Below are positions 25,377 through 29,789 of a stretch of DNA of 43,029 nucleotides, piece after piece. The translations under genes and the position numbers were made by a program. Source of the DNA: an uncultured Gammaproteobacteria bacterium (lineage in GTDB: Bacteria > Patescibacteriota > Patescibacteriia > 2-01-FULL-39-33); contig CAZLFP010000007.1 of NCBI GenBank assembly GCA_964558935.1, positions 1 to 43,029 of the forward strand. The letters run 5' to 3'. The first letter of the stretch is position 1, and each line of letters opens with the position of its first letter. The notes beneath the pieces are model-generated. The model saw only the letters and a program-made list of their open reading frames with translations, ran no database searches and was not told where the DNA came from.

Positions 25377-26105
25377 TCATTTTTTGTAAGCAACGGCTAT
25401 TAGGTTATGACCTTGCAATCGACTGACGGGCCGTCCTTTAAGTTGGTAGTCAAGGGTTTTAATCTCAAAGCCCACCTGCTTTAACAGCCGTCTCAATTCA
25501 GGTTTGGTGAAGGCATGGGCATACCTGACTTTGACATCCCCGGTCATTTTCCAAGGTACGAAAAAATCCTGGTATGACCAAGCACGGTACTTGAGTTTGT
25601 GTTTGACATTAAACCAACTGAGTGCGTATTGAGTGAAATATTTGAGTTGAAATAAATTCCAAGTCGATACAATGAGGTAGCTACCCGGCTTAAGGCTGGT
25701 GTAAATCTGATGCAACACCTTTAATCTTAACTCATGGGTAGGAATATGATGTAAAACAGCAATTAACAACACCAGATCATACTGGCTATCAGCTAAGCCT
25801 GGCTCTAAAATATTTTTAACTTGGAATTGAAGATGCCGGCAGTCTGCATAACGTTCTTGAGCCAATCTAATTAATTGCTCGGAATCATCCAATCCCAGAT
25901 ACTGCAGTCGGTAGTTTTTAAACAACTCGGCCATCCGGCCATTACCGCAACCCAAATCCAAAACAGATATTCCGTCTTTAACATAATCTTGAATAAAATT
26001 AAAACCGGGCCAAGACCGACTGCGAGTACTGGAAAAATCTGACGCAATCTGGTTGTAGATCTTATGAGTTTGAGCTAAAATGGCTTGTATATCTTGCGGT
26101 CTCAT
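25377..26105 (-). CDS. Class I SAM methyltransferase, Trm9/ALKBH8-like (putative tRNA cm5U34 methyltransferase)
   Basis: YNQIASDFSSTR...WP, VLDLGCGNG, IAVLHHI, LKPG, QDFFVPWK and RYAHAF...EL; divergent from elp3. Confidence 0.78.
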   Translation of the reverse strand: MRPQDIQAILAQTHKIYNQIASDFSSTRSRSWPGFNFIQDYVKDGISVLDLGCGNGRMAELFKNYRLQYLGLDDSEQLIRLAQERYADCRHLQFQVKNILEPGLADSQYDLVLLIAVLHHIPTHELRLKVLHQIYTSLKPGSYLIVSTWNLFQLKYFTQYALSWFNVKHKLKYRAWSYQDFFVPWKMTGDVKVRYAHAFTKPELRRLLKQVGFEIKTLDYQLKGRPVSRLQGHNLIAVAYKK

Positions 26106-26145
26106 CTAATTGCTATTAATTATCAGCTAGCATATAATAAACGGG

Positions 26146-27714
26146 ATGGAAAAGAAAAAACTTAATTTAATTATTGAAGATTTAATTCAAGCTAAACCAA
26201 CTGACCAAAACCAGCTGGTTAAAGCTGTTCGGCGCATATCCAGCCGACTTCAAACAGCCCCACCTAAAAAAGCAGATCTGTTGTCAGCATACCATAAATT
26301 GGTTAAAAGTAAAAAAATTATGGCTCAACCCGAGCTTGCACAGCTGCTGACCAAACGAGCTGTCAGAACCATGTCAGGCGTGGCTGTAATCTCGGTTTTA
26401 ACCAAACCGGCTGACTGTCCCGGTCAATGTTTGTTTTGCCCCACTCAACCGGCTATGCCTAAAAGCTATTTGGCGAATGAACCGGCTGTTATGCGAGCAA
26501 TCTTAAATCAGTTTCATCCTTTCAAACAGATTAAAATGAGACTGAAAGCTTTACAAGATAATGGTCATGCGACTGACAAAATTGAATTGATTGTCATGGG
26601 CGGCACCTGGTCCTGCCACTCTCTTCAATACCAATCTTGGTTCATTAAACAGTGTTTTGAAGCATTAAATGGCAAAAAAGCCACTAATTTGGCCCAAGCC
26701 CATCAGCATAACCAAACCGCCAAACATCGCTGTGTTGGTTTAACCTTGGAAACCAGGCCGGATTACATTAATGAGGCAGAGATCAAGCGTTTGAGACAAT
26801 TGGGTTGCACCCGAGTAGAATTGGGCATCCAACATATCAGAGAGGATATTCTCAAGCATAATTGTCGCGGTCATGATGTTAAAACTAGCATTCGAGCGAT
26901 TGCTTTGCTCAAACAAGCCGGCTTTAAAATCAATTACCATCTGATGTTGAACCTACCCGGGTCTACCCCGACTTTAGACTTCCAGATGTTTAAAACCATC
27001 TATACTCATCCCGATTGGATGCCGGATATGGTTAAAATCTACCCCTGCGTAGTCACTCAAGATTCTCAATTGTATGAAATCTACCGACAAGGCGGTTACA
27101 CTCCATACACAGACAAACAACTGCTCGCCCTGTTGGTTAAGATTAAAAAAATCACTCCTTCATATGTTAGAATAACCCGTTTGATTCGAGATATTCCGGC
27201 AGAAAGCATTCAAGCCGGCAACAAGATTACCAATTTAAGACAGCTGATCGGGGATCTCAGTCAACAACAGGGTTGGAGCTGTCAGTGCATTCGTTGCCGA
27301 GAAGCCGGACACCAGACCGACTTAAGTCCGCTTAATGATGAGATTCAAATTCTGGAATATACGGCCAGTCAAGGCAGAGAATTCTTTTTAAGCTTTGAAT
27401 CCTTGGATAAGAAAGTGCTGTATGCTTTTTTAAGATTAAGGATTAACCGTCAGTCAGCTAATTTCATACCGGAACTTAAACAAGCTGCTTTAGTCAGAGA
27501 GGTTCACACTTACGGACAACTCACGGCTCTTAAACAAACCGGGCAAGTGCAGCACACCGGACTGGGTAAACGGCTGCTGAACAAGGCGGAGGAAATTTGT
27601 ATAACCCAAAACATCGCCAAGCTGGCGGTTATCTCCGGCATCGGCGTTAGACAGTATTATGCCAAGCTGGGTTATGAGCTTAAAGGCACTTACATGGTTA
27701 AAAACTTGAATTGA
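26146..27714 (+). CDS. elp3: Elp3-family radical SAM/KAT tRNA U34 carboxymethyltransferase
   Basis: RTMSGVAVI, CPGQCLFCP, PKSY, ETRPD, CQCIRCRE, REVHTYG, QHTGLGKRLL and ISGIGVRQYY.KLGY. Confidence 0.93.
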   Translation: MEKKKLNLIIEDLIQAKPTDQNQLVKAVRRISSRLQTAPPKKADLLSAYHKLVKSKKIMAQPELAQLLTKRAVRTMSGVAVISVLTKPADCPGQCLFCPTQPAMPKSYLANEPAVMRAILNQFHPFKQIKMRLKALQDNGHATDKIELIVMGGTWSCHSLQYQSWFIKQCFEALNGKKATNLAQAHQHNQTAKHRCVGLTLETRPDYINEAEIKRLRQLGCTRVELGIQHIREDILKHNCRGHDVKTSIRAIALLKQAGFKINYHLMLNLPGSTPTLDFQMFKTIYTHPDWMPDMVKIYPCVVTQDSQLYEIYRQGGYTPYTDKQLLALLVKIKKITPSYVRITRLIRDIPAESIQAGNKITNLRQLIGDLSQQQGWSCQCIRCREAGHQTDLSPLNDEIQILEYTASQGREFFLSFESLDKKVLYAFLRLRINRQSANFIPELKQAALVREVHTYGQLTALKQTGQVQHTGLGKRLLNKAEEICITQNIAKLAVISGIGVRQYYAKLGYELKGTYMVKNLN

Positions 27715-27745: not shown

Positions 27746-28981
27746 ATGCACAAAAACAAAATTATTTCATTAATTAAGCAAGAAATCAGCCGTCAACAAA
27801 CAGGTCTGGTTATGATCGCCTCAGAAAATTACGCCTCACCGGATGTTTTAGCTGCCATGGGTACCCCGTTGTCCAATAAATATTCAGAGGGCTACCCAGG
27901 CAAAAGATACTACACCGGCAACCAGTACATCGACGACATTGAATCACTGGCTCAAGAGTTGGCTTTGAAAATCTTTAATCTCAACCCTCAAGACTGGCAT
28001 GTCAACGTCCAACCCCACAGCGGTTCTTCGGCTAATTTGGCAGCTTACTTGGGCTTACTTAAAACAGGTGATACCATTTTGGGTATGGATTTGGGAGCCG
28101 GTGGTCATTTGACTCATGGCAGTCCGGTGAATTGGTCAGGCAAATTATTTAACTTCGTATACTACACTGTCGATTCCCAAACACATACATTGGATTACCA
28201 AGAAATACTAAGAGTTGCTCAAAAAGCACAGCCCAAACTGATAGTATGCGGAGCAACTGCCTATACCCAACTCATAGATTTCAAGCAATTTCGTCAAATC
28301 GCTGACCAAGTCAATGCGTATCTGCTGGCAGATATTGCCCATATTGCCGGCTTGGTCGTGGGCGAGGTACACCCATCACCTTTTCCGTATGCTGACGTGG
28401 TCACTACTACAACCCACAAAACTCTGCGCGGACCCAGAAGTGCTATCATTATCTGTAAAGCTGAATTGGCCAAAGCCATAGATACGGCGGTTTTTCCGGG
28501 CATGCAAGGCGGACCCTTGGATCATGTCACCGCTGCCAAGGCCATGTGTTTTGCGGAAGCTTTAAGCTCAAAATTTAAACAAGATCAAATACAAACGGTT
28601 AAAAACGCTCAGGTCTTGGCTCAAGCACTCAAAGATCAGGGACTGAAGTTAATTGCCGACAGTACTCAAAACCATCTACTGCTGGTAGATTGCCAGCCTT
28701 TGAACATTACGGGCAAACAAGCGGCCGACGCCTTAGCTCGAGCAGATATTTACACCAATGCCAACATGATTCCTTTTGATCCTGCCTCGCCTCTTAATCC
28801 ATCCGGAATTCGTCTTGGCACACCGGCTCTGACCACTCGAGGCATGCAAGAACCAGAGATGCAAACCATTGCGGGTTGGATTGTGCAAATTTTGAAAGAT
28901 ATTGGCAATGACACATTAATCTCAGACCTTAAACAGCAAGTCCATAAGCTAACCAAACAATTCCCTGTCTACCATGAATAA
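27746..28981 (+). CDS. glyA: Serine hydroxymethyltransferase
   Basis: IASENY, NKYSEGYPGKRYY, GGHLTHG and TTTTHKTLRGPR. Confidence 0.97.
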   Translation: MHKNKIISLIKQEISRQQTGLVMIASENYASPDVLAAMGTPLSNKYSEGYPGKRYYTGNQYIDDIESLAQELALKIFNLNPQDWHVNVQPHSGSSANLAAYLGLLKTGDTILGMDLGAGGHLTHGSPVNWSGKLFNFVYYTVDSQTHTLDYQEILRVAQKAQPKLIVCGATAYTQLIDFKQFRQIADQVNAYLLADIAHIAGLVVGEVHPSPFPYADVVTTTTHKTLRGPRSAIIICKAELAKAIDTAVFPGMQGGPLDHVTAAKAMCFAEALSSKFKQDQIQTVKNAQVLAQALKDQGLKLIADSTQNHLLLVDCQPLNITGKQAADALARADIYTNANMIPFDPASPLNPSGIRLGTPALTTRGMQEPEMQTIAGWIVQILKDIGNDTLISDLKQQVHKLTKQFPVYHE

Positions 28982-29789
28982 AACCGCTACCATTTTGGAT
29001 GGCCAAGGTTTAGCCAATGCCATCCTTAAAAAATTGGCTCAACAAATTCGTTCTGCCCGGGTCAGACCGGGCTTAGCAGCCGTTTTAGTCGGCAGTGATC
29101 CCGCTTCTGGCTTGTACATACGCTTAAAAGAAAAAGCCGCCCAAGCAGTGGGAATTAATTTCCACAAATATCTATGCAACGAACAATGTTACCAAGATAT
29201 TAGTCAACAAGAATTAATTCAGCTAATTAAATTTTTAAATCAAGATCAAGAGGTGGATGGTATTTTAGTGCAACTGCCTCTGCCTAAAAAATACGACAGT
29301 CGCAAAGTCTTACAAGCCATTGAGCCTCAAAAAGACGTTGATGGCTTCTTGACTGACCAAACCGGATTAATTCCCCCACCCATTGCAGCCATTATTAGTC
29401 TGCTGCAAGCCACTCACCAAGACTTGTCTGAGTTGTCGACTTTAATCATTGGCAAGGCAGATATCTTTCTCAACAGTTTAGACAAATACCTGCAACAAGA
29501 ATTGCCTTTAAAAAAAATTACCCGCAGAAAAAGCATTCCTCAGAATGCTAAAAACTTTGATATTATCATCATCGCCTTGGGTCAGGCTAAAGCCTTAAAA
29601 AAATCCCAGGTGAAGCAAGGGGCCATTGTCATAGACGTGGGCATTAACAAAACACCCACCGGCAAAGTGGTGGGAGATGTGGATCCCAAAGTAAAAGAAC
29701 AAGCCGCTTTCCTGTCTCCGGTGCCGGGCGGGGTTGGACCATTAACCGTGGCTCATTTATTGGAAAACACCTATAAACTGTCTCAATAA
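28974..29789 (+). CDS. folD: Bifunctional methylene-THF dehydrogenase/cyclohydrolase (divergent)
   Basis: YIRLK, GILVQLPLP, KDVDG, IDVGIN and PVPGGVGPLTVA. Confidence 0.9.
   Translation: MNKTATILDGQGLANAILKKLAQQIRSARVRPGLAAVLVGSDPASGLYIRLKEKAAQAVGINFHKYLCNEQCYQDISQQELIQLIKFLNQDQEVDGILVQLPLPKKYDSRKVLQAIEPQKDVDGFLTDQTGLIPPPIAAIISLLQATHQDLSELSTLIIGKADIFLNSLDKYLQQELPLKKITRRKSIPQNAKNFDIIIIALGQAKALKKSQVKQGAIVIDVGINKTPTGKVVGDVDPKVKEQAAFLSPVPGGVGPLTVAHLLENTYKLSQ

Follow-up and report, generated by a model that had tools for sequence, protein, structure and literature searches.

Modification of the tRNA wobble uridine at C5 (xm5U34) is taught as split between the domains of life, with MnmE and MnmG acting in bacteria and Elongator and Trm9 in eukaryotes and archaea. 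To our knowledge, 5-methoxycarbonylmethyluridine (mcm5U34) and its 2-thiolated form (mcm5s2U34) have until now been attributed to eukaryotes and a small number of archaea, and we know of no physiology for bacterial Elp3, for which a structure has been solved. Here we analyse a stretch of 43,029 nucleotides, referred to as the window (GenBank contig CAZLFP010000007.1, contig 7 of the source genome G000), from an uncultured bacterium placed in the Patescibacteria. It carries, head to head, a gene for Elp3 and a gene for a class I S-adenosylmethionine (SAM)-dependent methyltransferase that resembles Trm9 and ALKBH8. We consider it probable that the pair is an archaeal/eukaryotic-type two-gene module for the wobble uridine in a bacterium: Elp3 would form 5-carboxymethyluridine (cm5U34), a Trm9 that works independently of Trm112 would turn it into mcm5U34, and MnmA would add the 2-thio group (s2).

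The closest described enzymes are Trm9-Trm112 of yeasts and ALKBH8-TRMT112 of animals, which follow Elp3 in the pathway. The methyltransferase has their class I fold and, of the proteins with solved structures, is most similar in sequence to Trm9; it also carries their N-terminal Y...FS.TR...W helix, HH motif, pair of tryptophans and R-Y-x-H motif, in which residues required for Trm9 activity lie. Unlike ALKBH8 it has no AlkB or RRM domains, and in contrast to both the yeast and the animal enzymes it has a bacterial host and a gene divergently paired with that of Elp3. In archaea, the Haloferax volcanii enzyme HvoTrm9-Trm112 makes mcm5U, and Trm112 is required in vivo and for soluble expression, according to the accessible text of PMC6144793; an Elp3-Trm9 gene cluster has been noted in Sulfolobus solfataricus (PMC2584109). 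A stand-alone Elp3, a Trm9 homologue and clustered genes are thus common to the archaeal systems and to our locus, and loci labelled Crenarchaeota and Pacearchaeota are paired in our data as well. The locus described here differs from archaeal Trm9 systems in its bacterial host, in that Trm112 was not found in the genome and in its thiolase, which is MnmA rather than of the Ncs6/Tuc1 type.

Two other bacterial systems serve as points of comparison. MnmE-MnmG (with MnmC) acts on the same target, C5 of U34, probably in the same split-codon-box tRNAs, and has MnmA thiolation in common with the proposed module, but the enzymes are unrelated: they depend on folate, flavin adenine dinucleotide and GTP, whereas the Elp3 route uses radical SAM chemistry and acetyl-CoA. 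CmoM of the Gammaproteobacteria is, like the putative Trm9, a bacterial class I methyltransferase that esterifies a carboxyl on a U34 side chain. Bacterial Elp3 was called 'a rare example' in 2019 (PMC6367351) and was said to occur in 'numerous bacteria' in 2026 (PMC13315578), and the accessible portions of both papers name no downstream methyltransferase; in our survey, by comparison, 151 of 401 genomes from a single phylum have Elp3, in most cases together with a constant methyltransferase partner. According to a 2017 review on Trm112 (PMC5372719), bacterial genes similar to Trm112-dependent methyltransferases are not detectable, and bacterial U34 bears MnmEG-type modifications. No description of a bacterial Trm9 or of a bacterial Elp3-Trm9 pair was found in the literature searched; automatic KEGG-style names from the Joint Genome Institute (JGI) already point to Trm9 for bacterial homologues.

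Results

Elp3 and its predicted role

The original prediction had described a complete Elp3, a series of motifs in both proteins and a divergent gap of 40 bp between the genes, all of which are present in the translations and the sequence. Elp3 is a full-length member of NCBIfam TIGR01211 (558.9 bits, cut-off 350; the match takes in model positions 3-522 of 522). Pfam identifies Radical_SAM and Radical_SAM_C, and the C-terminal GNAT domain only weakly (Acetyltransf_10 and Acetyltransf_1; 22 and 18 bits), but despite these scores the GNAT region aligns end to end with the Elp3 of Methanocaldococcus infernus (MinElp3). Among 36 aligned Elp3 sequences from related loci, the radical-SAM CxxxCxxC cysteines (C91, C95 and C98) are invariant, as are Q469, H470 and G474 in the KAT/GNAT region, and C379, C381 and C384 of the CQCIRCRE motif (residues 379-386) are nearly so. 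According to PMC6367351, Elp3 of bacteria and archaea retains such a three-cysteine zinc site, which eukaryotes lack; together with the stand-alone radical-SAM and KAT domains, the site likens our protein to the Dehalococcoides mccartyi enzyme DmcElp3 (5l7j) and to MinElp3 (6ia8).

Against solved structures, the protein scores about 440 bits with the archaeal M. infernus entries 6ia8, 6iaz and 6iad (439.9 for 6ia8), 408.9 bits with D. mccartyi Elp3 and 313-324 bits with eukaryotic Elp3. Its residues 1-63 form a basic N-terminal extension, which lies outside the coverage of the Dehalococcoides structure chains and resembles archaeal enzymes. By analogy with the function established elsewhere for the family, this Elp3 would form cm5U34 on tRNA, acting alone and using SAM and acetyl-CoA to place a carboxymethyl group onto C5 of U34.

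Sequence and structural placement of the methyltransferase

The methyltransferase contains the motifs Y17-NQIASDFSSTR28-SRSW32P, LDLGCGNG, IAVLH119H120, QDFFVPW185 and R194-YAH197-AFTKPEL. With the single sequence, the best match in the PDB is 5cm2_Z (E 3e-13), the Yarrowia lipolytica Trm9 (YlTrm9) of a Trm9-Trm112 complex entry, and the alignment spans the N-terminal TR..WP motif, IAV.HH and D..VPW and continues to RY.H. A profile built from 36 relatives (alignment A1, in which D50 and D73 are invariant) also ranks 5cm2_Z first among 129 PDB sequences, with 95.1 bits, ahead of two uncharacterised archaeal methyltransferases at 81.9 and 80.3 bits; the margin over the next match is just 13 bits. 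Many copies from the Candidate Phyla Radiation (CPR) carry an insertion of about 10 residues ahead of the last strand.

Comparison with ALKBH8 gives the same picture. Searching for longer relatives returned a single protein, P0121, in which an AlkB-type oxygenase domain is joined to a methyltransferase domain; its PDB matches are human ALKBH8 (3thp, E 1.6e-29) and Trm9 (E 9.5e-22), and its relatives are either Phytophthora proteins with the name ALKBH8 or proteins from Oikopleura. When the methyltransferase domain of P0121 was searched against the 3,322 open reading frames (ORFs) of G000 (stop to stop, at least 60 residues), the methyltransferase described here was the sole match (E 6.7e-15), with no other at E <= 10. 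Conversely, eight eukaryotic ALKBH8-type domains reach 86.9-134.5 bits with the CPR methyltransferase profile, against 13-54 bits for the other methyltransferase ORFs of G000 (the next-best at 54, 49 and 44). By sequence, the protein is thus Trm9/ALKBH8-like and nearer to Trm9/ALKBH8 than to other methyltransferases, in line with the character first proposed for it.

Domain databases leave more latitude. Pfam assigns generic class I domains only (Methyltransf_23/11/12/25), and a curated Trm9 model is not among the Pfam or NCBIfam matches; homologues are called class I SAM-dependent methyltransferase by NCBI, and automatic names range from 'tRNA (uracil-5-)-methyltransferase TRM9' or 'alkB family protein 8', given to some by JGI, to UbiE. 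From such names, and from UbiG, BioC and UbiE among the NCBIfam matches, one could argue for a small-molecule or protein methyltransferase of the UbiG/UbiE/BioC kind whose proximity to Elp3 is meaningless. We hold this to be very improbable: the NCBIfam matches all lie far under their cut-offs (UbiG 49.4 against 102.95 bits; BioC 39.8 against 184.95), the Trm9-specific N- and C-terminal motifs beyond the SAM-binding core are conserved among the relatives, and several phyla keep the gene beside that of Elp3. The kinship with small-molecule methyltransferases that would have spoken against the original prediction was therefore not seen. A CmoM-like role on uridine 5-oxyacetic acid (cmo5U) was also considered and rejected; the CmoM model scores 22 bits against a cut-off of 366, and the role is excluded because CmoB, which makes the substrate, was not found in G000 (28.9 bits against a cut-off of 275).

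The AlphaFold2 model of the methyltransferase has a class I fold, with a mean predicted local distance difference test (pLDDT) value of 92.9. Foldseek ranks an uncharacterised Methanosarcina methyltransferase first (3sm3, E 1.9e-17) and Trm9 second (5cm2_Z, E 1.3e-16, template-modelling score 0.83 on the target). A tree was calculated from 45 sequences, hand-picked from the 36 of alignment A1 and from 80 further loci: 19 from CPR, nine from other bacteria, five archaeal, eight ALKBH8 domains and, as outgroups, four other methyltransferases of G000. In it the ALKBH8 clade has a support of 100/99 and joins a Thermoplasmata copy at 80/76, but the branches of the outgroups are 2.5-4.15 long and emerge from open forks, with one outgroup placed inside the CPR group. 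Structure model and tree agree with a relationship to Trm9, consistent with it but not decisive; the placement first proposed is hence borne out by the profile scores, which are highest for Trm9/ALKBH8, and not by phylogeny, where this tree leaves the outgroup placement open.

Conservation of active-site residues

In Saccharomyces cerevisiae Trm9 (ScTrm9), the substitutions R29A, D72A, H116A, W145A, W168A, R241A, Y243A and N271A lose activity, as given in the available text of PMC4678810. We mapped these residues through a HMMER alignment to 5cm2_Z with an index offset of 35, checked on eleven residue identities named in that text, and counted conservation across 79 prokaryotic copies and eight ALKBH8 domains aligned with MAFFT. 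Six positions are retained: R29 corresponds to R28 (79/79 prokaryotic copies), D72 to D73 (78/79), H116 to H120 (78/79), W145 to W149 (79/79), W168 to W185 (70/79) and R241 to R194 (74/79). Five of the six have the same residue in all eight ALKBH8 domains, the W168 position being tryptophan in five and phenylalanine in three. Y17, which has the spacing of ScTrm9 Y18, is tyrosine in 76 of the 79 copies and in 8/8 ALKBH8 domains. Two positions are less well kept: that of Y243 is A196 here, with tyrosine in 28/79 copies and cysteine in 5/8 ALKBH8 domains, and N271 probably corresponds, by MAFFT only, to N234, with asparagine in 49/79 and 7/8. The residues needed for ScTrm9 activity are thus conserved except for Y243, whose position is variable in ALKBH8 too.

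The loss of the Y243 activity residue could be taken to mean that the methyltransferase belongs to the Elp3 pathway yet makes a product other than mcm5U, by acting on another side-chain atom or on a subset of tRNAs, or by forming a bacterial-specific xm5U derivative. The precedent of H. volcanii, where U34 chemistry after Elp3 is incompletely known, with an unidentified species and cm5U absent in the trm9 deletion (accessible part of PMC6144793), leaves room for such a product. We nevertheless think it quite improbable, as the proposed contacts of the cm5U carboxylate and uracil ring (ScTrm9 R29, H116, W145 and R241, with Y18 assigned by spacing) hardly vary among bacterial copies and ALKBH8, and the variability at Y243 extends to ALKBH8 itself. 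Residues, placement and linkage point instead to a Trm9-type methyltransferase that would use SAM to put a methyl ester on the carboxyl and so give mcm5U34.

Linkage to Elp3 across genomes

To place the pair in its phylum, we surveyed 401 genomes, counting the methyltransferase at E <= 1e-15 with a single sequence; related genomes are non-independent observations in all counts that follow. Elp3 is present in 151 genomes and the methyltransferase in 111, of which 110 also have Elp3. The two genes are divergent with less than 1 kb between the matched stretches in 86 of the 111 and divergent at 1.1-3.9 kb in nine; in two genomes they share a contig but lie far apart, in 13 they are on different contigs, and in one there is no Elp3 at the threshold. 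Among the 41 Elp3-bearing genomes without a methyltransferase match, a family profile run on 40 Elp3 neighbourhoods (all but that of G137) recovered the methyltransferase beside Elp3 in four (G353, G126, G095 and G338) and did not find it within about 4 kb of Elp3 in the other 36. At least 114 of the 151 Elp3 genomes therefore carry the methyltransferase, and at most 37 are without a detected copy. Because of these 37, Elp3 would also seem to work without the methyltransferase, a count that lends something to the idea of a product other than mcm5U. In family f32 (e.g. G174, G191 and G237), which has Elp3, neither the genome-wide search with the single sequence nor the profile search up to about 4 kb from Elp3 found a methyltransferase; modification in such Elp3-only lineages may end at cm5U or continue with a different enzyme.

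A separate scan of species-representative genomes gave 80 methyltransferase loci with record titles. Elp3 adjoins the methyltransferase in 67 of them, 65 times divergently: 66 pairs were found under genetic code 11 (64 divergent, two on the same strand), and locus L080 was added with TGA read as Gly. Three of the 13 loci lacking Elp3 have less than 100 bp of contig upstream. When each gene is started at its most upstream ATG, 42 of 51 divergent pairs are separated by no more than 120 bp, and the median distance is 13 bp. The paired loci come from many Patescibacteria lineages and from records labelled Chloroflexota/Anaerolineales, Myxococcota, Thermoanaerobaculia, 'Candidatus Multivorans', Crenarchaeota and Pacearchaeota, labels that were assigned by the depositors and may be incorrect in the case of some metagenome-assembled genomes. 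Elp3 and the methyltransferase are a real, conserved and functionally linked gene pair, and the synteny first noticed at a single locus recurs within the phylum and outside the Patescibacteria.

In L080 (1910-4205; labelled uncultured Candidatus Saccharibacteria), both genes are intact only with TGA as a residue (table 25), and because of this its label or its genetic code assignment may be off. The methyltransferase family is large, with 1,798 representatives of 50%-identity clusters matching the profile at E <= 1e-30. In the ESM Atlas there are generically named methyltransferase clusters only, from CPR phyla, Chloroflexota, Promethearchaeota and Thermoplasmatota, which is a lead on distribution and nothing more.

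Trm112 and its contact surface

A search of G000 for Trm112 (Pfam PF03966) in six frames gave no match at E <= 0.001, nor at E <= 10, where each of the 14 control genomes gives matches; with a model of 40 positions, a very divergent or non-homologous partner would escape. The suspicion that the enzyme does without a Trm112 gene thus extends from the window, where no conserved small ORF accompanies the pair, to the genome. In the phylum, PF03966 has matches in 22 of 381 genomes, nearly all within ORFs of 201-758 residues and one in an ORF of 64. The methyltransferase is also present in eight of the 22 (G008, G016, G044, G085, G142, G299, G346 and G095), and in these no Trm112 match lies beside Elp3 where coordinates are comparable. 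Families with the methyltransferase in every sampled genome have no Trm112 match (f2 0/6, f16 0/5, f24 0/10). The phylum's Trm112p matches fall almost always in ORFs of about 300-360 residues in families f31, f32 and others (e.g. G095:C4:186969-187112, G333:C3:20974-21063 and G294:C4:61889-61978) that are not next to Elp3; these may be Trm112-methyltransferase fusions like those that the available part of PMC5372719 mentions for some bacteria.

In YlTrm9, Trm112 shields a hydrophobic core formed by V59, F78, V102, A110, P112 and F116 (PMC4678810, accessible text). Judged on one alignment with eight eukaryotic sequences from two lineages, the V59 position is hydrophobic in 7/8 ALKBH8 domains, 4/42 CPR-like copies (K or R in 31) and 0/25 Chloroflexota copies; the F78 position in 5/8, 1/42 (D or E in 26) and 11/25; and the V102 position in 7/8, 20/42 and 12/25. 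The methyltransferase of G000 has Q95 at the last of these and, in contrast to the yeast and animal enzymes, S47 and Q68 at the first two. These residues are in keeping with a solvent-exposed surface and hence with a Trm9 that would work without Trm112.

The opposing view is that this is a true cm5U34 methyltransferase of Trm9 type that still needs a substitute for Trm112, be it a small protein that has escaped recognition, contact within a homodimer, or Elp3. In its favour, the aromatic residue at YlTrm9 F116 and the aspartate at D117 are retained (Y109 and D110), V102 is hydrophobic in about half of the bacterial copies, and the very tight pairing with Elp3 would suit a physical complex. F116 and D117 lie, however, in a motif that we take to be common to many class I methyltransferases, and most bacterial copies have charged residues at two of the core contact positions. 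Prediction of an Elp3-methyltransferase complex scored 0.00 in two runs, with controls not folded, and is evidence neither way. The broader precedent also favours a substitute, as every characterised Trm9/ALKBH8, the H. volcanii enzyme included, needs Trm112 for solubility or activity according to the accessible parts of PMC4678810 and PMC6144793. We judge a required substitute unlikely. Because G000 has no PF03966 match and two contact positions are charged or polar, we class the methyltransferase as a Trm9-type enzyme that is most likely a Trm112-independent variant and not part of a Trm9-Trm112 holoenzyme; it would act without its zinc-knuckle partner.

Other U34 enzymes in the genome and the phylum

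The module would stand in the place that MnmE/MnmG holds in model bacteria. In G000, MnmG was not found (best 17.5 bits, over model positions 1-33), and the MnmE model matches just the two GTPase domains of one ORF of 458 residues (104.9 bits against a cut-off of 252.6). MnmA, in contrast, is present (389.7 bits), encoded elsewhere in the genome, and would add s2 on the Lys, Glu and Gln tRNAs to give mcm5s2U34. ARAGORN finds 43 tRNAs in G000; U34 occurs in 14, among which are Lys-UUU, Glu-UUC, Gln-UUG, Arg-UCU, Gly-UCC and Leu-UAA. G000 also encodes a tRNA-Ile with anticodon UAU and two CAU tRNAs only, and TilS (TIGR02432) has no match; for these reasons AUA is probably read by the U34 tRNA-Ile and not by a lysidine tRNA.

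In the phylum, MnmG occurs in 11 of the 401 genomes, none of which has Elp3, so the anti-correlation with MnmG that was foreseen is observed. At the thresholds used, both Elp3 and MnmG are missing from a further 239 genomes, and most of the phylum seems to be without both known xm5U34 routes. Because of these genomes, the module is not a one-for-one swap for MnmEG, and the relation is one of exclusion rather than strict replacement; the proposal that it replaces MnmEG fits G000 itself and is weakened for the phylum.

The locus and its neighbourhood

The coordinates of the features are collected in Table 1. G000 is an assembly of 906,658 bp in 14 contigs, with a completeness of 100% and a contamination of 0.62%.

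Table 1. Features of the Elp3-methyltransferase locus (positions in the window)
Feature	Position	Strand	Remarks
Trm9/ALKBH8-like class I SAM-dependent methyltransferase, 242 aa	25377-26105	minus	ATG ORF; predicted tRNA cm5U34 carboxyl methyltransferase
Elp3, 522 aa	26146-27714	plus	ATG ORF; radical-SAM + GNAT, predicted tRNA U34 carboxymethylation
Divergent intergenic gap, 40 bp between start codons	26106-26145		from the sequence
Sigma-70-like promoter candidate for Elp3, TTGCTA-17 nt-TATAAT	26110-26138	plus	10/12 consensus matches
glyA and folD	27746-29789	plus	downstream of Elp3
Protein with a bactofilin-like repeat region, 408 aa	24109-25335	minus	downstream of the methyltransferase

The promoter-like site of Elp3 takes up the gap between the two genes; it is a consensus match only, in a region that holds three such sites against a mean of 6.4 in shuffled sequence. 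Seven nucleotides separate the end of the -10 box from the Elp3 ATG, and no Shine-Dalgarno-like stretch was seen between them. Because the -10 box ends so close to the start codon, the Elp3 mRNA is probably leaderless or near-leaderless. A sigma-70 consensus scan found no promoter-like site for the methyltransferase near the gap. As this leaves the Elp3 site as the sole one, in a region with fewer sites than its shuffles, the co-regulation that the original prediction had read into the divergent arrangement is not supported, while the two-gene module finds backing in the conserved linkage. The stretch, or part of it, is contained in three DNA sequencing runs of one microbial-mat study, and the RNA runs listed number zero.

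Downstream of Elp3, glyA (serine hydroxymethyltransferase, 514 bits) starts after 31 bp and overlaps folD by 8 bp. These genes were considered as part of the module and rejected, because glyA follows Elp3 in just three close relatives (L050, L053 and L060). On the other side, the protein of 408 residues has a bactofilin-like repeat region and a hydrophobic C-terminal half, and beyond it lie a phosphoglucomutase/phosphomannomutase and a DUF6498 protein.

Discussion

Several of the observations above weigh against a Trm112-independent Elp3-Trm9 route. Trm9 is second to 3sm3 by structure and leads the PDB profile ranking narrowly, the tree leaves its outgroups unsettled, and the Y243 and N271 positions are not uniformly kept. 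All characterised relatives depend on Trm112, for which the search model is short, and absences are read from a 14-contig assembly. Elp3-bearing genomes without the methyltransferase and the many genomes with neither Elp3 nor MnmG add to these. What speaks for the route is the combination of a full-length Elp3, a methyltransferase that keeps six positions needed for ScTrm9 activity, and a divergent pairing conserved across phyla.

The pathway itself would be of a familiar type; its novelty lies in the bacterial host, the apparent independence of Trm112, the hybrid with MnmA and the wide distribution. Extending the reading from this genome to the family, we lean, somewhat less firmly, towards the view that at least four phyla (Patescibacteria, Chloroflexota, Myxococcota and Acidobacteriota-type lineages) make mcm5U34 and, with MnmA, mcm5s2U34 through a fixed divergent Elp3-Trm9 pair, that their Trm9 is naturally Trm112-independent and bears charged residues at the site of the Trm112-contact patch, and that this would be the sole xm5U34 pathway in about three in ten of the sampled Patescibacteria.

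If this is true, the whole Elp3-Trm9 route is present in many bacteria, mcm5(s2)U is to be expected in bacterial tRNA, and the textbook split of wobble-uridine modification changes. Bacterial Elp3 would thereby gain a pathway, and a Trm9 freed of Trm112 would be a natural experiment on how Trm112 activates methyltransferases. Records under the labels Anaerolinea and other Chloroflexota also contain the pair, and since some members of this group are in culture, the prediction can be checked. For the ultra-small Patescibacteria, the module would help to define the minimal decoding apparatus.

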